Assembly (NCBI GenBank): GCA_014240385.1
Contig: JAAZXA010000068.1
Span: forward strand, 29,090 to 93,089
Origin: Methanobacteriota archaeon
GTDB taxonomy: Archaea > Thermoplasmatota > Poseidoniia > Poseidoniales > Poseidoniaceae
DNA: 64,000 nt
Reading direction: 5' to 3'
Part shown: positions 1 through 39,071 of the stretch, in pieces
How the letters are laid out: every line of letters starts with the position of its first letter
Numbering within the stretch: position 1 is the first letter of the stretch
Program-made: the position numbers and the translations under genes
Notes under the pieces: generated by a model
What the model was told of the DNA's origin: nothing
The model's database searches: none
What the model saw: the letters and a program-made list of their open reading frames with translations, nothing else

Positions 1-152
1 TTTCCAGTTATGGTCGGTAGGTCTACTCGTTCCAACGGAGTCCATTCTGGTTTCCTGCGCTGTAATTCATTGATGAGGTGTTCATCTGAGTATCTTTTCA
101 ATCTCTTCCGGTCACCCTGACTGAGACCTCTAATTTTGTGCTGTTTAGTCAT
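1..152 (-). CDS. hypothetical protein, N-terminal part (continues past window start)
   Basis: ATG (cat 150-152) directly preceded on coding strand by AACCGCTC; reads MTKQHKIRGLSQGDRKRL...; open to window edge. Confidence 0.5.
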   Translation of the reverse strand, partial: MTKQHKIRGLSQGDRKRLKRYSDEHLINELQRRKPEWTPLERVDLPTITG

Positions 153-163
153 GAGCGGTTCAA

Positions 164-379
164 TCATTCAGGGGAGATGGTCTTTGCCCAGCGGATTAGT
201 GCAAGTTCTCTTGCAACTTTGTCGCTGAGTAACATGCACCCAATGTATTGGTCTAGGGCTTGAAATTCCTCTTTTGCTTTTTCACAAAATAATTCATTTT
301 CCTTATTGCCTGCACAGATCGTTCTTATTTTGTGTAGGCTGTAGCGTAAATCAATCACTTCTTCCTCGATTTCCTTCAT
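164..379 (-). CDS. hypothetical protein, 71 aa
   Basis: ACCGCTC-ATG start (cat 377-379); track ORF 164..625 over-extended, motif visible as ..KPLM KEIEEEV.. Confidence 0.6.
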   Translation of the reverse strand: MKEIEEEVIDLRYSLHKIRTICAGNKENELFCEKAKEEFQALDQYIGCMLLSDKVARELALIRWAKTISPE

Positions 380-387
380 GAGCGGTT

Positions 388-1104
388 TCAATTGGGTTTC
401 ATTTGAATCCAATTGTAGAGTCTCAAGAACTCGTACATCACATTTCCAGTTGGGTTTTCTGGATCGTGTGTTGAGGTTCCTTTGATTCCAAAATATTTCT
501 TCACATCCTTCACCCTCCAATTTGAGTTTGGTTGGATATGTGGCCCACCTGGACGGATTTCCTCCGTTTTGGGGTCGTAGCCAGTCCATAGGGACAGGTC
601 TCGGTGACTGATTATGAGGTTCCACATGGCTCCCCCCATTGGGTTGCCATTGACGGAAAGGATGTCTTCGCCGTTTTGACGGGCTATCATTTCCTTTTCG
701 AACTGTTCCATGAAAGGGCTTACGCGCATTTCATGGGTTAGGGGTGTTGCATCATCTTCTTCTCGGGGATCTTTCCCGTTAAAGTGATATTCAATGTGTT
801 CATCCGTTAGTTCGTCGTAGAAATCGTAGGTTCTCCATGTTGCTGTAATTACCAGCCCCATGAACCACCCATCTTTTTCGTCATCATAACATTCATGTTC
901 CCACCAAGTAATGAGATTCTTCCGATACAGACAACTTAGAATTGTGTCCATCTGTTCTTCGGTTTTGTTCATATTGGTAGGCATATCGTGACCGAAGACA
1001 TCGGAGTAATAGGGTTCTCCGATGCCCCAGTTGTACCATCCTGTCTCCTTGAGCCAATCTAGTGTTTCTTTTTCTGCTTCCGTAAGGTGCATTTTGTTTT
1101 TCAT
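388..1104 (-). CDS. hypothetical protein, 238 aa
   Basis: ACCGCTC-ATG start at 1102-1104 (..NKPLM KNKMHLTEAEK.. in track ORF 388..1329); stop 8 nt before next start. Confidence 0.6.
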   Translation of the reverse strand: MKNKMHLTEAEKETLDWLKETGWYNWGIGEPYYSDVFGHDMPTNMNKTEEQMDTILSCLYRKNLITWWEHECYDDEKDGWFMGLVITATWRTYDFYDELTDEHIEYHFNGKDPREEDDATPLTHEMRVSPFMEQFEKEMIARQNGEDILSVNGNPMGGAMWNLIISHRDLSLWTGYDPKTEEIRPGGPHIQPNSNWRVKDVKKYFGIKGTSTHDPENPTGNVMYEFLRLYNWIQMKPN

Positions 1105-1231
1105 GAGCGGTTTGTTGATAGACCGGCTACCTTTGTTGAAGGTTGCCGGATATAATGTCACCTCCAAGTGAAGGGGGGCAGGGGGATTTCCGGTGAGGCT
1201 TGGGTGGCCTCCCTCTACCCCCTGTCTCCAC

Positions 1232-1429
1232 TTATTCTTCATAGCGTTCTTCATAATCATGAATCTTCCAAGAGCCAACGGTATTTCCGTTGATATCTTT
1301 GATTCTTCCTTCCCCGTGTCCGTTGGCAATCATATCGCAGATGTCTGCGAAAATGCGCCTTGTCTCTGGTAAAGGGGTTTCATTGAACGCTGCGTTGTCT
1401 ATGTTGTATTCGATTTCAATTTTCGACAT
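1232..1429 (-). CDS. hypothetical protein, 65 aa
   Basis: ACCGCTC-ATG start 1427-1429; matches track ORF. Confidence 0.55.
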   Translation of the reverse strand: MSKIEIEYNIDNAAFNETPLPETRRIFADICDMIANGHGEGRIKDINGNTVGSWKIHDYEERYEE

Positions 1430-1601
1430 GAGCGGTGGATGGTGTGTAGGTCTGACATGAAGACAAATGTTCCCATACTATCTTCAATATTTTGATTTTC
1501 ATTTCTTTCCTGATGGATCTGTTATTCTGGACATAGTCTCGAATCTCATCCCATCTGCTTTCGTTTTTCCCTAGTTTGTTTCTAGCGTGTTGTTCTAGCA
1601 T
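1416..1601 (-). CDS. hypothetical protein, 61 aa
   Basis: motif start at 1599-1601 (catgagcggatt); overlaps downstream gene by 14 nt. Confidence 0.5.
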   Translation of the reverse strand: MLEQHARNKLGKNESRWDEIRDYVQNNRSIRKEMKIKILKIVWEHLSSCQTYTPSTAHVEN

Positions 1602-1608
1602 GAGCGGA

Positions 1609-1773
1609 TTAGACATCCCAACAAAGGGGCGTTCGGTTCTCCTTTGCAATTCTCCTGCAAGTTGCACAGGGGATTTTTCCCCCGTCTTTGACTATCTTTC
1701 GTTCCTTCTTGCTAAGATATGAAGTAAACGGTTTCTCTCTGTTGCATATTGAACAGTTGTACCATCGTGGCAT
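1609..1773 (-). CDS. Zn-ribbon protein, 54 aa (CxxC...CxxC); not in ORF track
   Basis: motif start 1771-1773; MPRWYNCSICNREKPF...CATCRRIAKEN; stop TAA abuts next ACCGCTCATG. Confidence 0.5.
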   Translation of the reverse strand: MPRWYNCSICNREKPFTSYLSKKERKIVKDGGKIPCATCRRIAKENRTPLCWDV

Positions 1774-1951
1774 GAGCGGTAATGATGGATCGACTTGTCA
1801 TGAAGGAGATCGCAGCGTTTAAGGGTTGCAGACTATCCGATTGTCATAGGCTTCTCGAATAGTCGAGAGCGAATCATCTTCTTGGCCCTCCTTTCCTTGA
1901 CTTAATATCCTGCATCTTACCCAGCTACTAATTACTGAGATTACTCGCTTT

Positions 1952-1975
1952 GGTGTCGTCCAAGGATTGGACACC
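1952..1975. repeat. conserved hairpin element GGTGYCGTCCAAGGATWGGACACC, copy A
   Basis: 6-bp perfect stem GTCCAA/TTGGAC, loop GGA, extended arms; 4 copies in window; followed 30-45 nt later by start-less motif variant CTGTGAGCGG (2003). Confidence 0.7.
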
Positions 1976-2013
1976 TATTGCTTCAATCCGTTCATATTCG
2001 CTGTGAGCGGTGT

Positions 2014-2382
2014 TCAGATGTAGTCATCTGAACCTTCTTCTCTGATGCCCCATCGACCAACTTCAATCTTAATTGAAGGTAGGTAATGTTCATGGCAATT
2101 CTGTATCTCGAATGCAAGCATTCCATCGGGTTCGGAATCATAAGCACCATATTTGCGCCAGACAGACAATAATGCTCGCATTTGTGTCTGTAGGCTCTTT
2201 GCAAGAAGTATTGCATTCTCTGTGTCGATATCATATCCCAAGTTGGTGGTTGCCTCGCTGTAGGTGTCCTTCGCCATGATGGTGAAAGATTCACTCAACA
2301 TTGCTCCTACTGTTTCACAATCCATGCTTGCAGTATACAGTTGCCATGTTTGGGCATCTAGTTTACACTTGTAGTGTTTCAT
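2014..2382 (-). CDS. hypothetical protein, 122 aa
   Basis: motif start 2380-2382; matches track ORF. Confidence 0.6.
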   Translation of the reverse strand: MKHYKCKLDAQTWQLYTASMDCETVGAMLSESFTIMAKDTYSEATTNLGYDIDTENAILLAKSLQTQMRALLSVWRKYGAYDSEPDGMLAFEIQNCHEHYLPSIKIEVGRWGIREEGSDDYI

Positions 2383-2393
2383 GAGCGGTGTTG

Positions 2394-2900
2394 TTATGGT
2401 CCTTCCACATCAACTGTGTCGTTCCAAGTGCAACTGGTAATGTGGTCCCATTCAACTCTTTCAGCGTCTTCACCATCAACATTCCAGGTATGCTCCGTTA
2501 GAGCATTTCTGAAATCGTAGGATGCATACGATAGAGCGTTGTAAGCTTCTTCGGTAGCATCGCTGTTGGCTTTCACGCCTTTGGCGTTCGCATCTCCACT
2601 GCAGTACAGGCGACTTAACGCCCTGAATAGTAAGATTTCCAACGGTGATGGTGTCCAACTCATTGCTCGTTGGATCTCTTCTTCTATCTCTAACTCTGCT
2701 TCGTTGCGGCTGTGCGGTGAGCCTGTTTCGTTGTGGGCGACATGCAGTTGCCAGTCGTTGAGCGCCTCTAGCGCATCAGCGGGTCTATCTTTTTCTCCTA
2801 AGATGTCGCTTAATCTGTTCAAGGCCTCAGTCAAACTTGGAATCGTATGATTCGCAAGATGTTGTCCTGCCCTTGTGTTTAACCAATTTCTATTAGTCAT
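2394..2900 (-). CDS. hypothetical protein, 168 aa
   Basis: motif start 2898-2900 (..HMKPLM TNRNW.. in track ORF 2394..2957). Confidence 0.6.
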   Translation of the reverse strand: MTNRNWLNTRAGQHLANHTIPSLTEALNRLSDILGEKDRPADALEALNDWQLHVAHNETGSPHSRNEAELEIEEEIQRAMSWTPSPLEILLFRALSRLYCSGDANAKGVKANSDATEEAYNALSYASYDFRNALTEHTWNVDGEDAERVEWDHITSCTWNDTVDVEGP

Positions 2901-2908
2901 GAGCGGTT

Positions 2909-3856
2909 TCATGTGGGTCCATTGGATTCTCCGTATGCGCCACTTGGTAGAGTCCATCCTCCCCTGGAACGAATCAATTGTCTTTCTTCAATCCATGCCT
3001 CGACGAGGTATGTGACGCCTTCGTATGGTGTTCCTTTCTCTACCAATTCTCGGACACTCACGCCTTGCTTGATTGTAAAACCGAATTCTTCTTCGTATTT
3101 CGCAATCTTCTCCACCATTGCTGGATAGAGTTCGGCGGCTGATGCCCATTGATTCGCATTTCCGAATATGCAGGTAATGCATGACAGTCTGCCCCATCCT
3201 AGCCAGTATGCTGGATGAGCCATGATTCTGTGTTTTTCCATGATTTCCCACACTTGTTTTTCTGTCCAATCGTGAATTGGCCTCCAATGATGCACCGTTC
3301 TCAATTTTCCATGACAACGGTGATTCTCGAAGGTGTTGTAGTTGGATCGTGATTTGCTTTCTCCTGCTCTCTCACCAGTCACAACAAGGGTCTTCTTGCC
3401 CTTGAATCGTTCTTGGTTGTTGATTGCTGCGCTCATCACATCGATTTTCAAATAGGCACTGCACCATCTTACCCGCAGATCTGCGGAGACTTGTGGAAAC
3501 TTGCGCCTTGTACCATCAGGGCCTTTACCCCCTGATGAATCGATTGTTCCGTCTGGGTTCTCCCAGAACACCTTGCCTGTCGGGCTGTTATCTCGTAGCA
3601 TCTCTTGCTCGAATCCGCCATCTCTCCAACTGAAGTAGATGGGAACATTGAATTCCTTTGCGAATTCCCGACAGTAATCTTCTGTTATCGGCCAATCCAT
3701 GAATGGATCGCTTCCTGGCGCACCATCAATGAGATGGTGCCACAGTTCTATTTTCTCTTTGTCAACACCGTTGTCTAGCAGGTCAAGGAAACAAGCTGTT
3801 GAGTCCTTTCCTCCGCTAAAGGCAACGATGATGTAATCGTATTCATTTAGGTTCAT
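2909..3856 (-). CDS. PP-loop ATP pyrophosphatase (PAPS reductase / DndC / QueC-like superfamily)
   Basis: N-terminal YIIVAFSGGKDSTACFL = SGGxDS PP-loop; motif start 3854-3856; 315 aa. Confidence 0.6.
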   Translation of the reverse strand: MNLNEYDYIIVAFSGGKDSTACFLDLLDNGVDKEKIELWHHLIDGAPGSDPFMDWPITEDYCREFAKEFNVPIYFSWRDGGFEQEMLRDNSPTGKVFWENPDGTIDSSGGKGPDGTRRKFPQVSADLRVRWCSAYLKIDVMSAAINNQERFKGKKTLVVTGERAGESKSRSNYNTFENHRCHGKLRTVHHWRPIHDWTEKQVWEIMEKHRIMAHPAYWLGWGRLSCITCIFGNANQWASAAELYPAMVEKIAKYEEEFGFTIKQGVSVRELVEKGTPYEGVTYLVEAWIEERQLIRSRGGWTLPSGAYGESNGPT

Positions 3857-3892
3857 GAGCGGTTCATTCCGACAAGGGAATTTCCTTGTTGG

Positions 3893-4126
3893 TTATTGTA
3901 GTTGTGAAACTGTTGTTACTGCGCGTTCGCCTTTAATCACCTTCTGTAAAGCATGAAGGCTGATTACAAGGGGGATGTAGGTTTGCCCATCCCCTGTTGT
4001 GTATGTTTCACAGTTTCCCATTTCGTTTACATTGATGGAGATCTTGATTGCTCCACCTTGGTTGCTTCTTCGGGCGTAGCCCACTAGCCTAGCGGGTGCC
4101 GTATCATCTTTTTCTTCAATAGACAT
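3893..4126 (-). CDS. hypothetical protein, 77 aa
   Basis: motif start 4124-4126. Confidence 0.5.
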   Translation of the reverse strand: MSIEEKDDTAPARLVGYARRSNQGGAIKISINVNEMGNCETYTTGDGQTYIPLVISLHALQKVIKGERAVTTVSQLQ

Positions 4127-4136
4127 GAGCGGTAAA

Positions 4137-4586
4137 TCACATTTCGAATTTAGTGATGCCATCATCTTCCGATAATCTCACTTTACGGCCAATCATTGTA
4201 GCCTGTTTTCGAAGTGCTTTGATTTTAGCGTGTTGTTCTAGCAGTCCTTCTCCATCTAGCATTGCTATGATTTGGAAGGCTTTTTTGTGCGAACGAATAC
4301 TATCCAGAATATCGTCAATCTTCGACAATAGTTCCCACATCTCGGGGCTTATCGTCATCTTGACTGCAGTTCTGTAATCGTCTGCACAGAATCCCTTTCC
4401 ATTAGTTTCTCTTCCTTTGACGAAGTGTCCGTGGCCGATGTGACCGGGGACTGGGAGTTTCGCAAAAATATTCTCTCTAAGGGTTGAGTCGTTTCTGCAT
4501 ATACAGAGGGGATTAGCCCTCATTCTCTCTCTCCCGCCAATACTCCAAGAAGCGGGGGAGAACTGTAGTGTAAATTCAGTTTTCAT
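4137..4586 (-). CDS. 6-pyruvoyl-tetrahydropterin synthase / QueD-like protein (putative)
   Basis: FSPASW near N-terminus (cf. FSAAH) and PGHIGHGHFVKG (cf. PTPS/QueD NGHGHNY / RLHGHSF Zn-site motif); motif start 4584-4586. Confidence 0.4.
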   Translation of the reverse strand: MKTEFTLQFSPASWSIGGRERMRANPLCICRNDSTLRENIFAKLPVPGHIGHGHFVKGRETNGKGFCADDYRTAVKMTISPEMWELLSKIDDILDSIRSHKKAFQIIAMLDGEGLLEQHAKIKALRKQATMIGRKVRLSEDDGITKFEM

Positions 4587-4597
4587 GAGCGGTCCCT

Positions 4598-4849
4598 TTA
4601 GGCTAGGGGATTTAATCCTTCTTTCCTGATTATTTCAGTCACTTGAAATTGGTGCCGGTGTTTGGTACAGGTTTCGTTAAGAAGGGGTTCCCAATGGGGT
4701 GCTAAAAGGGCGTTTTTGTTTCCTGGACATACTCCAGTATGTCCTTTGGTAATATTCTCTAATTCTTCCTCTGTTGCCCAGCCTTCTTCGGGCCAGGTGT
4801 GCTCTGCTTTACAGAACTTGCATCGGAAGATTGCTTTTATCTCTGCCAT
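4598..4849 (-). CDS. Cys-rich Zn-binding protein, 83 aa
   Basis: CKFCKAEH...CPGN; motif start 4847-4849. Confidence 0.55.
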   Translation of the reverse strand: MAEIKAIFRCKFCKAEHTWPEEGWATEEELENITKGHTGVCPGNKNALLAPHWEPLLNETCTKHRHQFQVTEIIRKEGLNPLA

Positions 4850-4856
4850 GAGCGGT

Positions 4857-5087
4857 TCAATTTGTTACTTGCCAAATTGATTCTTTCCATCGTCGGCCTC
4901 TGTCGTAACATCTCTTTGTTTCGACCTTGACGAACTCTGGGTTCTTTCCCAAGACATTGTTCAATGTTTGGATTGAGGTTCCTTCTTTGGTATTCATATT
5001 GATGTGCTCAAGTATCTCATGTGTTGAGGCATTTCCTTTCTCTTGCACATACTCTATTGCCATTTTCTTGATTCTAATGGAGACCAT
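4857..5087 (-). CDS. hypothetical protein, 76 aa
   Basis: motif start 5085-5087 (track ORF 4857..5156 over-extended). Confidence 0.5.
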   Translation of the reverse strand: MVSIRIKKMAIEYVQEKGNASTHEILEHINMNTKEGTSIQTLNNVLGKNPEFVKVETKRCYDRGRRWKESIWQVTN

Positions 5088-5095
5088 GAGCGGTT

Positions 5096-5251
5096 CTATT
5101 CGGGCTGTAGAATTTTGTATTGTAACAGGCCCACTTTCAGGAAGTGCCTGATACAATCTGATCTAGATAACCCGTGCGTATCTGCGATTTCATCAATTTG
5201 TTTCAATTGACCTTTGCTTATTCTGAGACTCACCATCCCTTTTGTTGTCAT
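5096..5251 (-). CDS. ribbon-helix-helix (CopG/Arc-like) DNA-binding protein, 51 aa; not in ORF track
   Basis: motif start 5249-5251; MTTKGMVSLRISKGQLKQIDEIADTHGLSRSDCIRHFLKVGL shows beta-strand/helix/helix RHH pattern. Confidence 0.5.
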   Translation of the reverse strand: MTTKGMVSLRISKGQLKQIDEIADTHGLSRSDCIRHFLKVGLLQYKILQPE

Positions 5252-5260
5252 GAGCGGTGT

Positions 5261-5470
5261 TCAGGAAAAGTCTGCTCCGCAATTGTAGCATTGATCTATT
5301 CCTGTGTTTGCATGGTGGTCGCAACATTTCGGGCAGATTTCATTTTCTGCACAAGGGCAACCGTTCAAGATTCTTCGCATCTCTTTAATCCAGCAATTTA
5401 CCAAATAGCGTTGGGTTTCTGTAGTAAAGGTGTCGATGTTGTTTTCCATGTCTTCAAGTATTGTTTCCAT
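5261..5470 (-). CDS. Cys-rich protein, 69 aa
   Basis: motif start 5468-5470; CPCAENEICPKCCDHH...CYNCG. Confidence 0.5.
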   Translation of the reverse strand: METILEDMENNIDTFTTETQRYLVNCWIKEMRRILNGCPCAENEICPKCCDHHANTGIDQCYNCGADFS

Positions 5471-5478
5471 GAGCGGTT

Positions 5479-6354
5479 TCAAACTGGAACCCATAGTTTC
5501 CTGCCATTAGATGAACAGGCTCGGACTAGAGAGGCTGCAGCACTTGGAGAATTGAAGGTCACATCTCGAGTAAATCGTAAATGTTTGCCGTCTTCAATTA
5601 TTGCTCCTTTTTCAAGGAGTTCTTTTCTCCATCTTTGCTCGCTTAACCTCCATGAGTCTCGGGGTTGCTTGTTTGCTGTAGATCCACGAAATACCACGAA
5701 CTTCTCGTTGCGGTATTGGCCTGTTGCTTCAACACCATTTGTTAGTGCAAGCTTCAGCATATCGTTGTCCCAGTATTCTTCTGATAGCCAGTTTCCCTTG
5801 TTATCCATGCATAGAACCTGCTTACCGCCGGCTCCTTCCCATGGACTGTTTGAAAATACGACTGATACTGACGGCCATCTTGACGCTCCGCCCTTAACAT
5901 GTGCAGGGCCGGTGAAGTCAAGTCTCCCTTTGAAGAAAACCAAATGCGAAGCATGAGGAAAAATCCAATTATGCCACATCAGGGTTTCACAGTTGGTAGG
6001 TCGGATTAGCAAGACGACGATTTCTGCATCGCCATTCTGCACAGAATCAAATGCCTTCTTTACGAACGGTTTGATTCCGTGGCTTGTTTTGCTGGAGTAT
6101 GGCGGGTTGCACCATACTATTCCTTCCCACTTCTGTTCTAGGGAGTCCATCTCAATATCGTAGTAATTCTCGCATAGGGCGTTTTCTTCGCTTGCAGCCG
6201 CATCCAATGTGAATGGGCCGAATCTGGCATTTAGAGAATCGAATATTGCTGTCGGAGTGCGCATGTCGTTTTCATCGCTATTCTTCTGCTTTCGATTCTT
6301 ATGCCAGGAGCGAACTTCCTCTGGCGTCATTTCAATTGATATCTTTTCAGACAT
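5479..6354 (-). CDS. DNA N6-adenine methyltransferase (phage Dam-like family)
   Basis: IVWCNPPYS catalytic NPPY motif; motif start 6352-6354; 291 aa. Confidence 0.7.
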   Translation of the reverse strand: MSEKISIEMTPEEVRSWHKNRKQKNSDENDMRTPTAIFDSLNARFGPFTLDAAASEENALCENYYDIEMDSLEQKWEGIVWCNPPYSSKTSHGIKPFVKKAFDSVQNGDAEIVVLLIRPTNCETLMWHNWIFPHASHLVFFKGRLDFTGPAHVKGGASRWPSVSVVFSNSPWEGAGGKQVLCMDNKGNWLSEEYWDNDMLKLALTNGVEATGQYRNEKFVVFRGSTANKQPRDSWRLSEQRWRKELLEKGAIIEDGKHLRFTRDVTFNSPSAAASLVRACSSNGRKLWVPV

Positions 6355-6361
6355 GAGCGGT

Positions 6362-32667: not shown

Positions 32668-32720
32668 GAAACCAAAAAGAAAACCCAACCGCCGTTGCAG
32701 TTGGGTTTGTTTGATTTGTG
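32668..32720. terminator. bidirectional intrinsic-terminator-like hairpin
   Basis: AAACCCAACCGCCGTTGCAGTTGGGTTT stem-loop flanked by A-run on one side and T-rich run on the other; lies after stop of gene 32736..33203 (minus-strand sense); followed by start-less TTGTGAGCGGCTC. Confidence 0.5.
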
Positions 32721-32735
32721 AGCGGCTCTTATGCC

Positions 32736-33203
32736 TTATGCCATTATCTCGCTTGGGTCGTCTTCCCATCGGTTACTCATCGCAATGATTCCTTCAAGAG
32801 GAACGCCATGGACATTTGACTCGAATAAGAATTGGTCTGTAATGTCGTGGCCTTGTTTCTTCCTGTATTGGTTCGTGTTGACGATTTTCACTCGATAGTC
32901 AAAGATCTTAGCGAGTTTAGCGTGATTTTCATATTCCCATCTTTGAGTGTTGGTGTTGTCTACAACGATGTATTCGTCGCCAGAGGCTAGAGCATCGATG
33001 AAGGAGCCCCAACATGATTGATGGGCCATAGGGATTTGCCAGGGGACAAAGTTGTAATTGCCGTCCTTGTCCTCGAAATAGAAATCTGCAGAATGCCAAC
33101 TGGTAGTTGCATTTGCTAGGTCTGTTTTCAAGCGCAAGTAGTGTTTAGCGTAGTAACTTTTGCCGGTTCCGGGTTTTCCCCTAAGAATTAATACTTCTTT
33201 CAT
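32736..33203 (-). CDS. P-loop kinase-like NTPase (polynucleotide/nucleotide kinase-like)
   Basis: LILRGKPGTGKSYYAKHY Walker A at N-terminus; 155 aa; motif start 33201-33203. Confidence 0.45.
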   Translation of the reverse strand: MKEVLILRGKPGTGKSYYAKHYLRLKTDLANATTSWHSADFYFEDKDGNYNFVPWQIPMAHQSCWGSFIDALASGDEYIVVDNTNTQRWEYENHAKLAKIFDYRVKIVNTNQYRKKQGHDITDQFLFESNVHGVPLEGIIAMSNRWEDDPSEIMA

Positions 33204-33228
33204 GAGCGGTTCTTATCGGGTGTTTGCA

Positions 33229-33525
33229 CTATTCGAATTGTGCAATCAAGTTGGTAAACCCATCATTCTGATCCCCATCAACAGTCCTTACGGCGTTGAT
33301 GAATCGTAGTCCACAAGATTGAGCATACCAATCCTTCAATTGTAGGAGGGCTGATTCAACACCAATAGATTCGATGCGAATCAAGGGATCATAACCGTAT
33401 GATTCCATCTGTTGATGTTGTCCTTCGTCCTGTAAGACATAGATCTTGTGACATGTATCGAATGCTATCGATACAGCGTCTTCCAATGTCTTTTCAATTG
33501 CTTTCCAAGTTTTCTTGTTTGGCAT
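33229..33525 (-). CDS. hypothetical protein, 98 aa
   Basis: motif start 33523-33525 (..NLPLM PNKKTWKA..). Confidence 0.5.
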   Translation of the reverse strand: MPNKKTWKAIEKTLEDAVSIAFDTCHKIYVLQDEGQHQQMESYGYDPLIRIESIGVESALLQLKDWYAQSCGLRFINAVRTVDGDQNDGFTNLIAQFE

Positions 33526-33535
33526 GAGCGGTAAA

Positions 33536-33910
33536 TTATATCCACGACATGTGGTTATTCTCAACCCATTCAAACAAAACCGAGTTATGCGGACCTTCTA
33601 ATCCGTCTAAGTCGGTGGCCTTTACGCCGTGTCTGATGTCGTTGATTCCAATCCAAGCCGGGGTTTTGTCATCTCGGGTCAGCATAACTGACCTGAGAAC
33701 TAGCCTGACTTGGCTATGATAGCCTCCGATGTCGATTCTGTCGGCTACGACTCGTTGCCCTATTGAAAGGGCCGCATCCAGGGGATGTGCTTCGTATACG
33801 ACTTTCTTTTGTTCCGAATCCCATCTCTTTGAGCCGGTGTAGCGGAGAGTAAATCTCCCTTCATGGCGTCCAATCTGGTGTCCGAATGCTTCTACAATGT
33901 TTGTAGTCAT
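33536..33910 (-). CDS. hypothetical protein, 124 aa
   Basis: motif start 33908-33910. Confidence 0.55.
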   Translation of the reverse strand: MTTNIVEAFGHQIGRHEGRFTLRYTGSKRWDSEQKKVVYEAHPLDAALSIGQRVVADRIDIGGYHSQVRLVLRSVMLTRDDKTPAWIGINDIRHGVKATDLDGLEGPHNSVLFEWVENNHMSWI

Positions 33911-33919
33911 GAGCGGTTC

Positions 33920-34651
33920 TCAGAAGTTCAACTTCGAGATTCGTCCGTGTTCATCGCATTGCTGCTTGATACGGAGCAATTCGCAGGCACCACGCCTTAT
34001 CCAAGCGTAGGCCTTCTTGCCCATACTCTCGCCATGAGGGATGTCAAGTTCACTCCACTCAGGCCAGTCCCAAGCGTCAAGTCCTTCGACTTGCGGCTTT
34101 AGGAAATCTGGTATGGTGGTTTTTCCTTGTTCATCCATAGCTGAAAGTTGGTGAGCATTCATGTGCTCCGCTACAATCCAAAGGATTGCATCGTACCCTG
34201 AAGAATCATCTCCGAGGTGTTCTAATGCTTCCTCAAGCATCTTTGCAGATGCCTTGTCGTGTCCAAATGCAGTGCTTTGTGGCGTTCCATCCGGCCATGT
34301 CTTCTTCGGGCTGTCCTTTAATGTGGACAACTTTCCAAGATCCGACCAGAAAATAGCCATCTCAAGAATGTGGTATTTACTCCACTCATTATCCATAAGG
34401 ATAACAGGCGTATCTTCCAGATGTTGAAGCATCCCGATGATGTGGTTGTAAAGCCAACCTTCCTCGTGGTGCTCGTTGTTCTGGAAACAGTAGAGCGTCT
34501 CGGTGTCAAACACCAATCCGTCAATACTTGCCTTTCCGTTCTCGAGTAAGACGATCTCAGTAGTGTGTAGGTGCTTGTTGATAGCACCAATCACTTCTTC
34601 GATTTCTGTTCTTTCAATTCTGCCCGTAGGCAGACAATTTTTTTCTAACAT
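33920..34651 (-). CDS. DEDD-family 3'-5' exonuclease-like protein
   Basis: LVFDTETLY resembles Exo I motif (FDTETTG) of DnaQ-like exonucleases; 243 aa; motif start 34649-34651. Confidence 0.4.
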   Translation of the reverse strand: MLEKNCLPTGRIERTEIEEVIGAINKHLHTTEIVLLENGKASIDGLVFDTETLYCFQNNEHHEEGWLYNHIIGMLQHLEDTPVILMDNEWSKYHILEMAIFWSDLGKLSTLKDSPKKTWPDGTPQSTAFGHDKASAKMLEEALEHLGDDSSGYDAILWIVAEHMNAHQLSAMDEQGKTTIPDFLKPQVEGLDAWDWPEWSELDIPHGESMGKKAYAWIRRGACELLRIKQQCDEHGRISKLNF

Positions 34652-34681
34652 GAGCGGTCTTTTTGCGTAGTCCTATTTGAA

Positions 34682-34882
34682 CTATGCAAGATATCCTCGT
34701 CCCATGAAATGCTTTCTACAGCCTCGAAAGCCGCACTTGTGGCATTCGCCAGGGTCGTGGGTATCTGGCTCTTGAGTTCCTTTTGGGACGAGTGGATCAT
34801 CATCATTGTGAATTGTAATGTTCTGCGTCCCGCAATGGGGGCAGTGCATTCTTGGTGGTTCGATGAATATTATCTGATTCAT
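34682..34882 (-). CDS. Zn-ribbon protein, 66 aa
   Basis: motif start 34880-34882 (MKPLM NQIIF..); CPHCG...CHKCG. Confidence 0.5.
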   Translation of the reverse strand: MNQIIFIEPPRMHCPHCGTQNITIHNDDDPLVPKGTQEPDTHDPGECHKCGFRGCRKHFMGRGYLA

Positions 34883-34890
34883 GAGCGGTT

Positions 34891-35118
34891 TCAATTCTTG
34901 ATAGGCATCAGCTTAAATCTGCAGCCTAGCATCAATTCATACATTACACCCCAATAAGGATGGGGTCTCCGTAGAGTCCACCATATATCGCAAAAGCGTT
35001 CAACCCCGACTGATTCAAGCCACTTTATTGCGGCTTTGCTGTTCTTGAATTTCGGGGATTTGAATCGGATTCTCTTTCGATCCTTGTAAAGGTGGATTGT
35101 GTATCTCTTTTCGGGCAT
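34891..35118 (-). CDS. hypothetical basic protein, 75 aa
   Basis: motif start 35116-35118 (catgagcggattt). Confidence 0.5.
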   Translation of the reverse strand: MPEKRYTIHLYKDRKRIRFKSPKFKNSKAAIKWLESVGVERFCDIWWTLRRPHPYWGVMYELMLGCRFKLMPIKN

Positions 35119-35126
35119 GAGCGGAT

Positions 35127-35408
35127 TTAATCCAGTGGATGTTCAGCCTTCGTGTTAAGGATCCATTCCAGCGTCTTGACTACGCCCCGAAGGGCATTGT
35201 AGTTTCGGACTGCTTCGCTGAATTTCTTCTCACGGGGGCTTACTCTCATCTCTTTCAGTTTATGGAGGTGGTTCAACCACCAATCCCTTCGTTCCTTCGC
35301 TTCGTGATACATTTCAATAATGTCATCCCAATTGCGATTAAAATCGAAGGGTGAACTTACTTGGGTCAGTCTGGGAGTTGTCATCATGGGTGGCGCATCA
35401 ATTCTCAT
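35127..35408 (-). CDS. hypothetical protein, 93 aa
   Basis: ATG 35406-35408 lies 9 nt downstream of start-less motif ACCGCTCAC (gtgagcggtg 35416-35425) that abuts stop of upstream gene; MRIDAPPMMTTPRL... Confidence 0.4.
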   Translation of the reverse strand: MRIDAPPMMTTPRLTQVSSPFDFNRNWDDIIEMYHEAKERRDWWLNHLHKLKEMRVSPREKKFSEAVRNYNALRGVVKTLEWILNTKAEHPLD

Positions 35409-35428
35409 ATTTGATGTGAGCGGTGTGT

Positions 35429-35842
35429 TCACGACCAGCAATTAAACTGGTCGATGCGAACACGCTTTTGGTCCTTATCGGCTCCACGCCCGATAGAATC
35501 GGGTGTGGGGACAGTCGAAACAACAGGGTAGCCATAGGCTTCTGCTGCGACTGCTGAACCAACTACAAGTACTCCTTCGGGGACAGTTGCTAGGAAAGCA
35601 AGTCCATCCTCTCGGGGTAGCTTCGTTGGTGTTACGAAATCGACATCCACTTCAACCTCAAGGTCGAGCGGGTTCCCTCCAAAATCTGCATTCAGCATAA
35701 CTCCAGAAGGCTCTACTTCGGTTTCATCCTCAAAGATGAACGAATGCCATGTTGTGCTAAGCACTTTGACTCCGTTACTCAAGGTGTAAACCATGCTGTC
35801 GTCGTATTCGTTTGTTTTCTCCATATTATTGTCTGTTGACAT
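35429..35842 (-). CDS. hypothetical protein, 137 aa
   Basis: motif start 35840-35842 (..NIPLM STDNNMEK..). Confidence 0.55.
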   Translation of the reverse strand: MSTDNNMEKTNEYDDSMVYTLSNGVKVLSTTWHSFIFEDETEVEPSGVMLNADFGGNPLDLEVEVDVDFVTPTKLPREDGLAFLATVPEGVLVVGSAVAAEAYGYPVVSTVPTPDSIGRGADKDQKRVRIDQFNCWS

Positions 35843-35865
35843 GAGCGGTATATTCCTTTCGGAAT

Positions 35866-36765
35866 TCAACTGAACACAGTCAAGAGTTCCTTCCACTCCT
35901 TTGGAGCACCCATTCTTAGCCGAATTGCCCTGTCGAGGGTTCGGAATGTAACGGCATCGCCATTGGCGTGAGTCTCTTTCAAATGTTTCAATACGCCCCT
36001 TTTGATGTTAATATCAACGCCAGGGTACATATTGGGTAGAATTGTGTTCATTCGTTCAAAAACCTCTGTAGTTGTAAGAACAACAGGGACCAACCAAGAC
36101 CTGTCGACCAGGGGTTGAGGCATTTCATGTTCCATCTTGTTTGTGATGAAGATTACCTGTCCCTTGAAATCGAACTTTCTCGGTAGTCCGTTGTTATCAG
36201 CCCATGAACTGTTCCATGAGATGACTCTTTGTCCATATGAGTCAAGTGCAGCCTTGCACAGTTCCATCATAGTCTCCCCAGACCAGATATCCACATCGTC
36301 TAGCACTAGCACTCCACCTTCTTGGCGGTCGTGCATAGCGGTGTAGACTCCGGTAGGAGCAATGTGTCCGGCAACCCAAGTGAATCCTTGCTTGCCTTTC
36401 TTGTCCTCTACGAGGTTCATTCGCTTGAGTGCTTCCTTTACCATGTGAGATTTTCCTAGTCCGCCTGTTCCACAGACGATTACTGAGGGACTAAATCTTC
36501 GAATTACCATCAACACAATTGATTCCATCATTTCGAATCTTTTGTTGACTGAGTGTTTGCTCATTTTATCGGTAATCGATTGGTTTCGCGCTTTCATTTC
36601 TCGGATTTTGGTATTTTCCTCGATTGATTGCGTTTCTGCTGTTGTTGCTGTACTTGCAATTGGTGTTACAACTTCGTTAGTCACACTTGAGGGGTTCGTA
36701 AAATTGATGTTCTCAAGTGTGCCGTTTTTGATATTTGTTTCTCCTTGCAAGTTATTCGTTTGCAT
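35866..36765 (-). CDS. P-loop ATPase (AAA-like)
   Basis: VIVCGTGGLGKSHMVKEAL Walker A and VLVLDDVDIW Walker B; 299 aa; motif start 36763-36765. Confidence 0.5.
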   Translation of the reverse strand: MQTNNLQGETNIKNGTLENINFTNPSSVTNEVVTPIASTATTAETQSIEENTKIREMKARNQSITDKMSKHSVNKRFEMMESIVLMVIRRFSPSVIVCGTGGLGKSHMVKEALKRMNLVEDKKGKQGFTWVAGHIAPTGVYTAMHDRQEGGVLVLDDVDIWSGETMMELCKAALDSYGQRVISWNSSWADNNGLPRKFDFKGQVIFITNKMEHEMPQPLVDRSWLVPVVLTTTEVFERMNTILPNMYPGVDINIKRGVLKHLKETHANGDAVTFRTLDRAIRLRMGAPKEWKELLTVFS

Positions 36766-36776
36766 GAGCGGTGTGT

Positions 36777-37151
36777 TTAGAACACGGGGCAGTCATTCCA
36801 TTCTGCCCAAAAGGCAGACGATTCATCCTTTGCCAGCACAGGGCCGACTAGGACTTTGAATATCTCAAAGCGCATTCCCTCCAATTTTAATGGCAGGGTA
36901 ACATACCTGAGTATTGGAATTGCCTCACGGCCTTCATTCAGGGTATACCTTCTTTGAATAGCCATTAGTGATGATATCAACACTCGGCCTACAACCTTAG
37001 ATGCCGATTCATCGCTGGTGCTGCTTTGATGGGCAGTCCACGCTTTCCAAATCGGGATCCATAGGTAGTCATCCGTGTGTTCATCTGGTTGTATTGACCT
37101 CAACTTAGAGAAGAGGCTGTCTGCAACCGGGTCATTTGTTTGTTCTTGCAT
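36777..37151 (-). CDS. hypothetical protein, 124 aa
   Basis: motif start 37149-37151 (MLIQPLM QEQT..). Confidence 0.5.
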   Translation of the reverse strand: MQEQTNDPVADSLFSKLRSIQPDEHTDDYLWIPIWKAWTAHQSSTSDESASKVVGRVLISSLMAIQRRYTLNEGREAIPILRYVTLPLKLEGMRFEIFKVLVGPVLAKDESSAFWAEWNDCPVF

Positions 37152-37162
37152 GAGCGGTTGGA

Positions 37163-37429
37163 TTAGCAAATTTCAAGCCATGCTTGTGTAGCCATTTCGG
37201 CTTCCTTTTTGCTAATCGCTATCCGGTTTCCACCCTTTGTGGTGGATGTGAGGACTGTTCCTCCTTTAGCCCATTCTTGGGCCTGTCTTTGTGCGTTTTT
37301 CTTGGCCTTTCGACCTCGTTTTCCATTTTCATGGATTTGTGTTGCTGTATCTTCGTAATATTGAGTCGTTCTGTTGAAATCTATTGAGCCTGTTTTGCGG
37401 CTGATTTTCCACGGAAAGATCCTAGACAT
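37163..37429 (-). CDS. basic (K/R-rich) protein, 88 aa
   Basis: variant start context CCCCTC-ATG (catgaggggtgc 37427); GKRGRKAKKNAQRQAQ. Confidence 0.45.
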   Translation of the reverse strand: MSRIFPWKISRKTGSIDFNRTTQYYEDTATQIHENGKRGRKAKKNAQRQAQEWAKGGTVLTSTTKGGNRIAISKKEAEMATQAWLEIC

Positions 37430-37449
37430 GAGGGGTGCAAAATGGGTAA

Positions 37450-37497
37450 TTCAAAACAAAACGCCCAACCGCATTGTCGCGGTTGGGCTTTTTGAAT
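37450..37497. terminator. bidirectional intrinsic-terminator-like hairpin
   Basis: GCCCAACCGCATTGTCGCGGTTGGGC stem-loop between A-run and TTTTTGAAT; shares CCCAACCGC with 32668-32720 hairpin. Confidence 0.5.
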
Positions 37498-37695
37498 ATG
37501 ACTTTGCGTGGGGGGTGCTCGAGATTTTTACTAGCCGCCTGCCTGCTGTATGGCTCTCGAGGGTCCGTGAGGACACGGCTCCTAACACAACTGATTTCCT
37601 TCTTCAAGATCCAGTTGGCCTCATCCCTGAATTAGGGATTACATTCCTCATTACCTATTGAAGCCGTTTCCGGCCTCTGCTGTAATTTTTTCGTA

Positions 37696-37777
37696 CATGT
37701 GGGGTTATCGTTATGTCCATCTCGATTCATGGCTCCATTGCCGACCTCTAATAGGCGGAGCGGGATTTTTTTCGGTG
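37696..37777. repeat. ~82-bp repeat, copy 1 (CATGTGGGGTTATCGTTATGTCCATCTCGATTCATGGCTCCATTGCCGACCTCTAATAGGCGGAGCGGGATTTTTTTCGG)
   Basis: ~97% identical to 40303-40383; upstream (minus-strand sense) of basic-protein gene 37163..37429. Confidence 0.75.
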
Positions 37778-37788
37778 TGTTGAAAGGT

Positions 37789-38067
37789 TCAACGCTTTGC
37801 CTTGAGCATTTCTAGTTGCTGCAAGTGCTGGTTGTCTCTGAGTTGTTGCGCTGCATCCTTCATAACGAGTATTGTTGTCTGGGCATTTCCAATCACTCTA
37901 TCGATTGCTGCCTTTGACGCCTCGTCAATGAGAAGTTGCTCAACGCAATTACTTGCTTCCCTTGCTATCATCTTAATCTCTGATTTTTCACAGTTTTTGA
38001 TGTTTCGGGGGCGACGGTTTCGCTGGTTTCCTTTTCCTTTTCTTGGTTTTATACATTTATCGTGCAT
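37789..38067 (-). CDS. basic protein, 92 aa
   Basis: motif start 38065-38067; KPRKGKGNQRNRRPRNIKN. Confidence 0.5.
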   Translation of the reverse strand: MHDKCIKPRKGKGNQRNRRPRNIKNCEKSEIKMIAREASNCVEQLLIDEASKAAIDRVIGNAQTTILVMKDAAQQLRDNQHLQQLEMLKAKR

Positions 38068-38090
38068 GAGCGGTTTGCTTTGGAACGGGA

Positions 38091-38124
38091 GCCCCGCTCA
38101 ATATCCGCAGATATTGGGCGGGGC
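38091..38124. terminator. 15-bp-stem hairpin (GCCCCGCTCAATATC/GATATTGGGCGGGGC)
   Basis: near-perfect inverted repeat with CGCA loop directly after stop of gene 38145..39071 and upstream of gene 37789..38067; stem contains CCGCTCA. Confidence 0.4.
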
Positions 38125-38144
38125 GTTCTAGATTTTGAACTCGT

Positions 38145-39071
38145 TCATACTCCGACGGATTTTGCTTTCTTGCTGTTTGTGATTGTTACAGCCAAGTTTG
38201 GTAATCCATCTTCATCTGTGCGTAGGTCAATGAAGTAGCCACGGATGCTTTCGTTGCAATCTAATGCTAAACGCCAGACACTTTGTTTTCCTGTTGGAGG
38301 TGCGGCAATTGGTATGCCTGCTCCCTCAACTAGGGTGTGAACAGAGTAATCAGCCTCATTCATTGGGTTTGAAGCTGCTCGTCCGGACAAGATGTAACCA
38401 GGGGTGATTCCCTGTCCATCATGGCGGGTTAGGCTCATCAAGTTGGCTGGACCGTTTAGGTCGCCAAGAAAGTTGATGAGCCCGATTCCGATTTGTCCTC
38501 GAGTAACTTTCCCATTTGATTGTGGGGTTGAGTCCTGTCCTTCCATGAAAAATGGAATAGATCTGATGCGTAGAGCACTATTGATTAGTGCAACGAATCC
38601 TTGAACCATGTTCAGACTGTTGGAGTTGTAAAGCTGCCATCTGCTGAGGCCATCCACTGATGGGGTAGGCCAGTAGTCCAATTTTTCGTGATACTCACAT
38701 TCTGCCATTCGCACGAATACCGTGTTCAGCCCGATGATTGTTGGGCTTGGTGCGGTTACGATGTCTGAGATGATTCCTGCATCTTTGAGGATGCTGAGTT
38801 CATCAACGAGGGCTTGCTTATCAAGTCCGAAGGCCAGCATGTCGCATCTGACTTCGTAGACTGGTCCGTCTCCGTCAGTATTTGGGACATAGATGAAGCG
38901 AGTTCCACCGTTTACAATGTATCGGGTGAAGTTCTTCTTTCCTTTTTGCTTGGTCTTCCTTGTGACTTCTACTCCTTCCAAGTGTTGTTCTGCTGCTTGG
39001 AGGGTATTGATTAAGTCCTCTGGGTCTATCTTTTCGTTCGTTTTGGTTTCTGTTTGCATGTTTGTTTGCAT
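38145..39071 (-). CDS. hypothetical protein, 308 aa
   Basis: motif start 39069-39071. Confidence 0.55.
   Translation of the reverse strand: MQTNMQTETKTNEKIDPEDLINTLQAAEQHLEGVEVTRKTKQKGKKNFTRYIVNGGTRFIYVPNTDGDGPVYEVRCDMLAFGLDKQALVDELSILKDAGIISDIVTAPSPTIIGLNTVFVRMAECEYHEKLDYWPTPSVDGLSRWQLYNSNSLNMVQGFVALINSALRIRSIPFFMEGQDSTPQSNGKVTRGQIGIGLINFLGDLNGPANLMSLTRHDGQGITPGYILSGRAASNPMNEADYSVHTLVEGAGIPIAAPPTGKQSVWRLALDCNESIRGYFIDLRTDEDGLPNLAVTITNSKKAKSVGV

Follow-up and report, generated by a model that had tools for sequence, protein, structure and literature searches.

The stretch of DNA analysed here (the window: 64,000 nucleotides (nt) of contig JAAZXA010000068.1) belongs to what appears to be a previously undescribed family of marine archaeal viruses with genomes of about 130 kb. 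Through some 39 kb of the window, the genes of a minus-strand block begin with one and the same heptamer, ACCGCTC, fused directly to the start codon ATG. Relatives were found to have the same gene-start architecture with other heptamers, each characteristic of a lineage. Comparison of these sequences suggests that the heptamer probably defines an RNA 5' end next to the AUG for leaderless expression, be it by initiation or by cleavage. Of the two routes we tentatively favour the first, in which the heptamer may be a minimal, virus-specific initiator-type gene-start signal with transcripts beginning at the A of the ATG; we hold this narrower proposal to be possible rather than probable.

The word CATGAGCGGT was found 82 times in the window, always on the + strand, between positions 150 and 39078. 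Dinucleotide-preserving shuffles produced it 0.09 times on average and once at most. An earlier reading of the same DNA from its letters alone (the sequence-only reading) had counted about 70 copies and called this far above chance; the excess holds, and the count was too low. That reading had also placed all copies in one orientation, with CAT as the complement of an ORF start, which is the case for 82 of 82: on the minus strand all of them read ACCGCTC-ATG, with an open reading frame (ORF) of 23-423 amino acids (aa) starting at every ATG. The spacing between heptamer and ATG is zero in every copy. The ORF behind each copy occupies the stretch up to the next one; the stop of the preceding ORF usually lies 7-12 nt 5' of the next heptamer-led ATG, and the intergenic DNA is often the 7-nt heptamer alone. 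Besides the exact copies there are about 12 near-variants of ACCGCTC-ATG, with NCCGCTC-ATG at five sites. The relaxed forms named earlier do stand at ORF starts, namely ACCACTC (12142), ACCCCTC (11702 and 37429), ACCCCAC (40778) and ACCCCCC (40305).

A logo of the starts, proposed in the sequence-only reading, has information only from -7 to +3. The region from -24 to -9 is essentially at zero, with a slight A bias at -8. An additional A at -8 (AACCGCTC) is present in only 48 of the 82 copies. More than 92% of heptamer copies are followed by ATG. The 14 sampled loci had GTG behind a copy at two distinct junctions only, seen in three of the loci. Compared to 365 unique perfect ACCGCTC sites, one-mismatch variants were seen at positions 1 (23 sites), 2, 3 and 4 (18 sites), and none at -3..-1. 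The heptamers are C-rich and have no G or one G. In every lineage except CTACCCA the junction reads C(-1)/A(+1), a pyrimidine/purine initiator dinucleotide; this match to an initiator presumes a start at the A of ATG.

The motif is restricted to the block. In the late regions the hexamer is at chance level on both strands, and sense-strand copies of ACCGCTC-AC lie inside late genes, where they are not avoided. The inverted heptamer is scarcer than expected, with two copies observed compared to 12-17 under Markov models. Codon shuffling gave a weaker effect (four observed, 10 expected, 9 of 300 shuffles equally low). The depletion is only suggestive of an orientation-dependent element acting at the DNA level.

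The usual start signals were observed in the genes outside the block and not in the heptamer genes. A Shine-Dalgarno (SD)-like 4-mer, scored at -20..-8 for the heptamer genes, precedes 12% of them, compared to 19% of random block positions and 79% of the 19 genes at 42.5-64 kb (58% for a 5-mer). A TATA-like 4-mer at -36..-20 was found for 17% of the heptamer genes and for 16% of random block positions, and the coding strand of the block is nearly free of TATA-like hexamers. On the other hand, late genes have a normal SD (GGAGG or GGTGA), and other non-block genes are leaderless, with a box ~25-30 nt ahead of the start, such as the TTATTTGG box of the TFB-like gene next to the block. The sequence-only reading had argued along these lines that the heptamer is no SD, that the genes at 42.5-64 kb are SD-led or TATA-linked and leaderless, and that the block forms a separate expression class within one element, all of which agrees with the counts given here. 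The use of different heptamers in different lineages, described next, points to a virus-specific gene-start signal in place of a ribosome-binding site and of the usual archaeal promoter.

The family was collected with the most conserved gene of the block, which codes for a PP-loop ATPase, as the marker. We fetched 80 metagenomic loci and several long contigs. Related contigs, 118-136 kb long, derive from marine assemblies of Tara Oceans, JGI, ENA and Logan; MDTC01050129.1, VMHT01099619.1 and IMGVR_UViG_3300020446_000001 are among the contigs obtained from Tara Oceans and coastal samples. The commonest NNNNNNN-ATG was taken for each locus, and a heptamer was assigned in 67 loci: ACTGAAC in 25, ACTGACC in 15, ACCGCTC in 13 (with genome G+C from 39% to 52%), ATTGAAC in seven, ATCGCTC mixed with ACCGCTC in two, ATTTGAC mixed with ATTTAAC in two, CTACCCA in two (with a marker only ~37% identical) and TCCGCTC in one. 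Thus the architecture recurs in relatives from many independent marine assemblies, and the heptamers are clade-specific on the marker tree. The search of related genomes for the same heptamer, suggested in the sequence-only reading, found the architecture in the family and the word ACCGCTC in part of it. The most distant marker homologues had no such motif. A relative whose A''-like protein (described below) is only 33% identical still uses NCCGCTC.

Orthologues carry the heptamer of the resident genome; therefore, the word belongs to the genome and not to the gene. Between the window and IMGVR_UViG_3300020446_000001 the shared genes have ~66-78% nucleotide identity, and ACCGCTC is present at essentially every junction in both. 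Because the word is kept at this level of divergence, purifying selection has to act on each copy and a sequence-specific reader is required. Since different lineages use different words, this reader must be virus-encoded; it cannot be the host ribosome, as the late genes pair with a normal anti-SD.

The element is archaeal, with a TFB-like gene and an intron-containing tRNA gene in the window and an RpoA''-like protein in relatives. No nucleotide match and no informative protein match was found in GenBank phage and archaeal-virus records, and an exact look-up of the window proteins found none on record. The products of the block are mostly ORFans, accompanied by DNA methyltransferases, Mom, ArdA, DUF3860, DUF6011 and the PP-loop (PAPS-reductase/DndC-like) protein. 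Pfam and PHROGs scans of 87 block proteins and the head-of-block proteins gave methyltransferases, PP-loop enzymes, an ATPase, and RHH and WGR domains. Judging by this gene profile, the block is probably an early, anti-defence region. A two-motif pattern scan of GTDB had at least 117 matches, and the multi-copy ones among the matches listed were unrelated tandem repeats in repetitive bacterial proteins. Similarly, ACCGCTCATG occurs 10-20 times per 8 kb in unrelated contigs of bacterial metagenome-assembled genomes (L094, L061, L052, L046, L102) as short tandem repeats inside repetitive genes, which are false positives.

Besides genes, the heptamer heads non-coding units. Seven ACCGCTC copies within the block are followed by AC(G/A) in place of ATG and stand at the head of non-coding stretches; in the units, +1 is an A and +2 a pyrimidine. 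Four of them are paralogues that have in common the hairpin GGTGTCCWATCCTTGGACGRCACC ~40 nt 3' of the heptamer and nothing else, with one stem position varying U-G/U-A among the four. An Rfam search gave no match for these four units, and only tRNAs reached the gathering threshold. Another unit is a 62-nt hairpin RNA with a minimum free energy of -28.4 kcal/mol (z = -3.9). It recurs in a relative of the ACTGAAC lineage (L191:11104-11160) with a different stem sequence and the loop GGCAUCCCAUCCCUAYRGGAU kept, and its conservation suggests that it is probably a viral small RNA. In L188 a heptamer stands ahead of a tRNA leader. In front of some heptamer genes, moreover, lie 230-360 nt of non-coding DNA in place of an upstream ORF. 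Because it also heads non-coding units, the heptamer is not purely a translation signal; the units and the genes behind long gaps argue that it marks the start of an RNA unit and not a site of re-initiation.

The position of the upstream stop codon also varies with lineage. In ACCGCTC and ACTGACC genomes it precedes the heptamer by 0-5 nt and in the CTACCCA lineage by 6-53 nt, while in the ACTGAAC and ATTGAAC genomes a TGA within the heptamer ends the upstream ORF at 50-70% of junctions. The variant tolerated at the position of this internal TGA is TAA, by which the stop is kept (ATTAAAC, ATTTAAC). Other upstream ORFs overrun the next heptamer-ATG by 4-345 nt, ATGA overlaps included; such junctions make up 2-7% in ACCGCTC genomes compared to 26-29% in L188 and L191. 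Strong hairpin + T terminators on the coding strand number two in 39 kb, with none in the ~32 kb (~75 genes) between 32.7 kb and position 1. In the window (32720) and in three relatives (L010:18718, L153:330, L191:13589) a 'closing' heptamer abuts a hairpin + T terminator. Several modules have the order heptamer, AC, hairpin and T run, and one of them lies behind the last gene of the block.

Two virus-encoded proteins resemble parts of the archaeal transcription machinery. The AlphaFold model of the TFB-like protein has a confidence (pLDDT) of 63, with 70-88 in the core; it matches TFIIB/TFB in Foldseek (E = 3e-7), and its TM-score to Pyrococcus TFB, normalised by target length, is ~0.75. The other is an RpoA''/Rpo1C-like protein of 824-881 aa in relatives, encoded convergently to the end of the heptamer block, whose best sequence matches in PDB are archaeal RNA polymerase Rpo1C/A'' (phmmer 7e-23). 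It has a ~450-aa insertion in Rpb1 domain 5. Pfam and PHROGs scans of the 87 block proteins, mostly ORFans, and of the head-of-block proteins detected no reader-type domain (nuclease, RNA-binding or polymerase), and a tblastn search of the head and late proteins of the window against all fetched loci had no matches.

Under the initiation proposal, a virus-encoded specificity factor, co-evolving with the motif, would read the heptamer on DNA in one orientation and would make the RNA polymerase begin transcription at the A behind it. The polymerase would probably be that of the host, possibly remodelled by the viral RpoA''-like subunit, the TFB-like factor or both. Each early ORF would then have its own leaderless mRNA with a 5' AUG, and each small non-coding unit its own 5' end. 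Such per-unit leaderless transcripts would need neither an SD nor TATA and B recognition element (BRE) signals, and would for the same reason leave ATG as almost the sole start codon. In addition, the identical junctions would offer micro-homology for swapping early gene cassettes.

Several observations speak for initiation. Invariance within a genome combined with switching between lineages is, by analogy, the pattern of promoters that co-evolve with their reader. The strictest conservation lies beside the C(-1)/A(+1) dinucleotide, and TFB-like and A''-like proteins are encoded. The near-exclusivity of ATG is a requirement of leaderless initiation that depends on the 5' end, and this virus uses leaderless, box-led genes (box at about -26) elsewhere. 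We also count in favour of initiation the lack of SD and TATA signals, the heptamers ahead of non-coding units, the ~32 kb of coding strand free of strong terminators and, as a suggestion only, the scarcity of the inverted heptamer. Overruns of ORFs across the next start would be harmless for nested transcripts and awkward for cleavage and for re-initiation. The clustering of position-4/6 variants at the head of the block, described below, fits a separate promoter class.

Other observations weigh against initiation at the heptamer. Nothing is conserved from -8 to -45, and we know of no precedent for a TATA-less promoter of 7 bp used by an archaeal RNA polymerase. The antisense depletion is marginal under the codon-shuffle null. 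Closing heptamers before terminators would be useless as promoters unless small RNAs are made, and the fact that most ORFs stop 0-5 nt before the heptamer or within it fits processing equally well. Homologues of the TFB-like protein were recovered from contigs of the ACCGCTC lineage only; no second RNA polymerase subunit was found within 10 kb on either side of the A''-like gene, the only subunit homologue seen. The TFB-like and the RpoA''-like protein are thus no more than candidates for the reader of the heptamer.

The main rival to initiation is RNA punctuation, which we regard as unlikely. Polycistronic early transcripts from a few promoters at the head of the block would be cut at C(-1)^A(+1) by a small, co-evolving, virus-encoded endoribonuclease, with release of ~100 leaderless mRNAs and small RNAs. 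The layout of the block is what such a mechanism would produce: units are flanked on both sides (n + 1), with closing heptamers after the last ORF and before terminators, the 62-nt hairpin RNA is bounded exactly by two heptamers, conventional promoter-like elements are confined to the block head, and strong terminators are as rare as stated above. ATG exclusivity and the absence of an SD suit leaderless translation as well. Because the stop codon of most ORFs either precedes the heptamer by 0-5 nt or is the TGA within it, any cut has to be at C^AUG. Mitochondrial tRNA punctuation, which gives leaderless mRNAs, and Cas6 cleavage of CRISPR repeats are n + 1 arrays of this kind, with products that start at or near the AUG and co-evolution of repeat and nuclease; their punctuation marks are structured RNAs of ~28-70 nt. 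Here, however, the 87 block proteins, most of them ORFans, contain no RNase-like or Cas6 domain or other nuclease that the scans could detect. Cleavage would also strip the stop codons from the ORFs that overrun a junction, ATGA overlaps included, so that the overlapping ORFs speak against obligatory cutting. Finally, ACCGCTC-AC is not avoided in sense within late genes, and depletion of the inverted motif is not expected of a reader that acts on RNA.

The heptamer could instead be a translational signal on a polycistronic mRNA, such as a non-SD ribosome-binding element or an enhancer of termination-reinitiation that holds the ribosome or a viral initiation factor at the AUG. We consider this improbable. 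At most junctions 2-12 nt separate stop and start, the ATTGAAC and ACTGAAC heptamers themselves contain the stop TGA with TAA as its tolerated variant, and an ATGA-coupled mini-ORF precedes gene 40305. Long co-directional arrays with stop and start a few nt apart are also typical of termination-reinitiation coupling in archaea and bacteria. Such coupling needs no invariant spacer; it is impossible ahead of a non-coding unit or behind a long non-coding gap, where heptamers are found as well. At some junctions the upstream ORF runs on for 50-345 nt beyond the next start, too far for re-initiation. The heptamers of the different lineages cannot all pair with one conserved host rRNA and have nothing common to all of them (compare CTACCCA with ACCGCTC), and on late genes the host ribosome uses the normal SD. 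The closest published analogue, the start-associated sequence (SAS) of mycobacteriophages, has nevertheless been proposed to act in translation (PMC3203893). The sequence-only reading had offered novel initiation, re-initiation or processing; the first and the last are in spirit the two leading explanations here, and re-initiation is disfavoured by the non-coding units, the 230-360-nt gaps and the far overruns.

The remaining alternative, with a similarly small chance of being right, is a DNA-level site whose primary role lies elsewhere: a strand-specific nick or modification site (for a nickase, a methyltransferase or a DndC-like enzyme), which would give the polymerase points of entry and recombination its hot spots, or a pure recombination linker. 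The block is rich in DNA methyltransferases, its most conserved gene codes for a PP-loop protein of the DndC/PAPS-reductase type, and the motif has a single orientation with its inverse depleted. Similarity between relatives stops exactly at heptamers. For example, a gene that the window shares with a close relative (L135) has 95% identity over 1293 nt, and the similarity runs from at most 2 nt upstream of one heptamer to 1 nt beyond the ATG behind the next. On either side of this gene, the sequences are unrelated or correspond to distant parts of the window. Relatives have their genes in shuffled order, and 1266 heptamer-led ORFs from ~50 loci fell into 459 families, including 177 singletons. 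The junctions are identical and are therefore joints for gene-by-gene exchange. Shuffling of this kind by way of regulatory repeats is exemplified by the promoter early stem-loop (PeSL) elements of T4 (PMC2839356). A linker alone, however, leaves unexplained the zero spacing, the ATG exclusivity and the purifying selection on each copy at ~66% identity; arms for a site-specific recombinase are lacking on either side, no nickase was recognised, and recombination at the sole shared 10-13 nt may be a by-product. We thus regard cassette exchange as a consequence of the expression signal and not as its primary function.

An integron-like array was also looked for. Integron cassettes have attC-type imperfect inverted repeats (~60-140 bp) and an integron integrase. 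Around the heptamer there are no conserved flanks and the intergenic DNA is often 7 nt long; the sole recombinase seen was the serine recombinase of the late region.

Other candidates were rejected. Concerted evolution without selection fails because tracts of 7-10 nt lacking flanking homology cannot be homogenised by conversion, and the copies are identical despite ~66% identity of shared genes. An anti-heptamer guide RNA was dismissed, as the complement is absent from the block and at chance level in the late regions. Pairing to rRNA or initiator tRNA was set aside by argument: heptamers vary by lineage and late genes use a normal SD.

The sequence evidence narrows the mechanism to the generation of RNA 5' ends, with initiation favoured over cleavage. 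A broader version, which we find doubtful as a whole, is that one virus-encoded reader, protein or RNA, recognises a 7-nt word before every early unit and so generates ~100 leaderless RNAs without host signals, by TATA-independent initiation, by nick-directed entry of the polymerase or by cleavage of a 40-kb precursor. The word would be rewritten when the reader changes and would double as the joint for anti-defence cassettes. If this were true and the route were cleavage or nicking, the mode of expression would be one not known in any archaeal or bacterial virus.

Parts of this picture have counterparts elsewhere. The poxvirus late/intermediate initiator TAAAT-G and the early octamers of giant viruses are short initiators that overlap or abut the ATG of many genes, have viral readers and give very short leaders. 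Those viruses have a complete RNA polymerase with dedicated factors, an extra A/T-rich core upstream and eukaryotic hosts, whereas the only such components seen in the present family are a TFB-like protein and, in relatives, an A''-like subunit, with no conservation upstream of -8. Promoters of the T7 group are near-identical within a genome and differ between phages at a few positions, with matching changes in the reader; they are ~23 bp long, number ~17 per genome, serve a polymerase of one subunit and stand apart from the start codons. By analogy, the TAAATG initiator and the co-evolution of T7-type promoters and polymerases would come closest to the mechanism proposed here.

As in our case, the SAS of Cluster K mycobacteriophages is a short, asymmetric repeat with a single orientation, placed immediately before starts, located in the non-structural half of the genome and enriched at ATG; the upstream stop sometimes lies inside the repeat, and its function was left unresolved (PMC3203893). 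Unlike the heptamer, it is 13 bp long (GGGATAGGAGCCC-type), has an SD core AGGAG, stands 3-7 bp from the start in ~15-20 copies per genome and has one consensus across subclusters in phages of a bacterial host (PMC3203893). The archaeal virus has a 7-nt word with zero spacing and no SD, which precedes nearly all of ~100 consecutive genes and also non-coding units and switches between lineages. The PeSL cassettes of T4-type phages (PMC2839356, PMC4122927) are similar in that regulatory elements are repeated between small variable early ORFs and provide homology for modular shuffling, and the intergenic repeats of halovirus HF2 (PMC8707807) are a precedent for promoter-bearing repeats in an archaeal virus. 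Both are ~30-70 bp long with recognisable promoter boxes and stem-loops, in contrast to the 7-nt heptamer with no box. The D3 repeats at the block head (see below) do have the PeSL-like composite form of promoter and stem-loop.

Full-text searches for the 10-mer, for the heptamer sets and for the topic, with subscription-only literature outside their scope, found no description of such a system, in line with the earlier statement that none with this architecture had been described. The Magrovirus and Poseidoniales-virus profiles have smaller genomes (87-100 kb) and mention no such motif; magroviruses encode TFB but are smaller (PMC10768690). None of the systems compared here unites a 7-nt word, zero spacing, use at ~100 consecutive genes and at non-coding units, and rewriting from lineage to lineage.

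The head of the block differs from its body. Position-4/6 variants of the heptamer (ACCACTC, ACCGCAC, ACCCCNC) gather there beside promoter-like repeats in both of the two genomes in which the head was seen. In IMGVR_UViG_3300020446_000001 (L218:205-8664), the first ~9 kb of the block have eight ACCACTC-ATG and two ACCGCAC-ATG among ACCGCTC. The head variants may be a distinct, immediate-early subclass of the signal. In the window, a 48-nt repeat, D3, is composed of a GC hairpin (GGTCAGGGCC-TAC-GGCCCCTATGACC) and a TATGCTAATGAGG box, and by its sequence looks like a terminator-promoter composite. The intron-containing tRNA behind its second copy scored 48.9 bits in Rfam and was missed by ARAGORN; its anticodon is not readable with confidence. 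The last of four tandem ~133-bp repeats serves the TFB-like gene, and the other three might drive RNAs of ~130 nt or titrate factors. All coordinates are collected in the table.

We made several side observations. The marker gene codes for a PP-loop ATPase of the PAPS-reductase/DndC type, and GAAC, which is a known phosphorothioation motif, is contained in several of the heptamers. The mini-ORF mentioned above has 11 codons (MIRDGHNDNPP, ~40302-40337, minus strand), with its stop overlapping (ATGA) the start of gene 40305, and its ~85-nt element is duplicated 2.6 kb downstream (~37690-37770, ORF part ~37698-37733) before a 15-codon ORF. Long non-coding stretches of 350-410 nt are present at the block head and beside it (41650-42043, 39430-39840, 37437-37788 and 32376-32735, minus strand); they may be structured RNAs or regulatory regions, and Rfam gave nothing for them. 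In relatives, non-block genes that lack an SD share an AAACGG(C/T)T box ~20-27 nt before the ATG, which has the position of a TATA box and a non-TATA sequence. ORF 50396-51211 contains an acidic (Asp/Glu) repeat of the GATGAG/GAGGAT type at 50990-51095 (+), with ten + strand copies of the 10-mer GATGAGGATG. In the region 55297-59156 (minus strand), tRNA-Arg(GCG) and tRNA-Lys(CTT) lie on either side of a small serine recombinase gene (57564-58385), possibly an integration module of a temperate lifestyle.

Table. Coordinates of the heptamer sites and other features. Positions are those of the window unless a locus handle is given.
Feature	Position	Strand	Remark
82-copy ACCGCTC-ATG array, probably early/accessory block	150..39078	-	runs on past the left end of the window
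CATGAGCGGT starts, part 1	150, 377, 1102, 1427, 1771, 2380, 2898, 3854, 4124, 4584, 4847, 5085, 5249, 5468, 6352, 6650, 6756, 7235, 8150, 9000, 9105, 9374, 9949	+	
CATGAGCGGT starts, part 2	10220, 10407, 10591, 10805, 11142, 12417, 12682, 13073, 13266, 13731, 13921, 14004, 15147, 15548, 15910, 17189, 17952, 18247, 18530, 19474, 19714	+	
CATGAGCGGT starts, part 3	20033, 20484, 21269, 21830, 22383, 22902, 23135, 23347, 24492, 24703, 25594, 25811, 26094, 27336, 27797, 28144, 28441, 28795, 29071, 29583	+	
CATGAGCGGT starts, part 4	30457, 30772, 30856, 31205, 31500, 31579, 32001, 32366, 33201, 33523, 33908, 34649, 34880, 35840, 36763, 37149, 38065, 39069	+	
TCCGCTC-ATG variant start	1599..1608	-	61-aa ORF
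ACCCCTC-ATG variant start	11700..11709	-	98 aa
ACCACTC-ATG variant start	12140..12149	-	118 aa
CCCGCTC-ATG variant start	19758..19767	-	77 aa
TCCGCTC-ATG variant start	26709..26718	-	122 aa
GCCGCTC-ATG variant start	28513..28522	-	21-aa ORF
TCCGCTC-ATG variant start	35116..35125	-	75 aa
ACCCCTC-ATG, head-class variant	37427..37436	-	88 aa; 26 nt past strong hairpin + T terminator, T-rich tail at ~-25
ACCACAC-ATG, head-class variant	39420..39429	-	108 aa
ACCCCCC-ATG, head-class variant	40303..40312	-	154 aa; ATGA overlap with stop of upstream mini-ORF
ACCCCAC-ATG, head-class variant	40776..40785	-	125 aa; first gene behind a D3 promoter-like repeat
ACCGCTC, then ACATCAAAT-ATG	35418..35424	-	9-nt spacer, then 93-aa ORF
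ACCGCTC-ACG	29372..29378	-	closes upstream ORF (TAA adjacent); heads 298-nt non-coding unit 29081-29371
ACCGCTC-ACG	26334..26340	-	heads ~230-nt non-coding unit 26104-26333
ACCGCTC-ACG	11383..11389	-	heads ~230-nt non-coding unit 11152-11382
ACCGCTC-ACA	2005..2011	-	heads ~224-nt non-coding unit 1781-2004
ACCGCTC-AC + 62-nt hairpin RNA	11710..11780	-	ends exactly at next heptamer ACCCCTC-ATG (11702)
GCCGCTC-AC closing heptamer	32720..32726	-	directly 5' of hairpin + T terminator
Strong hairpin + T run	32681..32708	-	terminator-like
Strong hairpin + T run	37463..37488	-	terminator-like
PP-loop ATPase gene (PAPS-reductase/DndC-like)	15920..17191	-	invariant cysteines; family marker
D3 repeat copy 1	40800..40847	-	hairpin + TATGCTAATGAGG box, conventional promoter-like; block head, before gene 40778
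D3 repeat copy 2	41193..41240	-	upstream of intron-containing tRNA
D3 repeat copy 3	42043..42090	-	upstream of ~350-nt non-coding stretch and ORF 41646-41377
tRNA gene with ~57-nt intron	41038..41168	-	archaeal-type feature
Tandem ~133-bp repeats, four	42110..42555	+	GGTATATGAATAGG-type box at the end of each
TFB/TFIIB-like gene	42564..43694	+	Zn-ribbon Cys pairs and two cyclin folds; leaderless, box at ~-25; no heptamer
Non-heptamer genes	43680..64000	both	SD-led or TATA-like box: glycosyltransferases, Arf-like GTPase, serine recombinase, 951-aa structural-like protein
RpoA''-like genes	L017:8480-11011 (IMGVR_UViG_3300020446_000001); L215:10001-12475; L217:10001-12535; L007:20806-21050		
AAACGGYT boxes	L215:2175-2204, 9201-9230; L217:1494-1523, 9148-9177, 9971-10000		

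The apparent expression of ~100 genes in an archaeal cell with neither TATA/BRE nor SD bears on the choice of start sites by archaeal and Pol II-type transcription and on how leaderless mRNAs are made and used. A 7-nt word that switches over hundreds of sites is a natural experiment in the co-evolution of reader and site, and could give a compact orthogonal expression part. For annotation, the heptamer is a rule that pinpoints the true starts of hundreds of ORFan early genes, probably with anti-defence roles, and of small RNAs in abundant uncultured marine archaeal viruses. Gene-by-gene exchange of cassettes at defined joints is seen here in an archaeal virus. Finally, the apparently undescribed family itself has genomes of ~125-136 kb with a TFB-like gene; its RNA polymerase A''-like gene contrasts with the statement in a review that archaeal viruses encode no RNA polymerase (PMC5569661).

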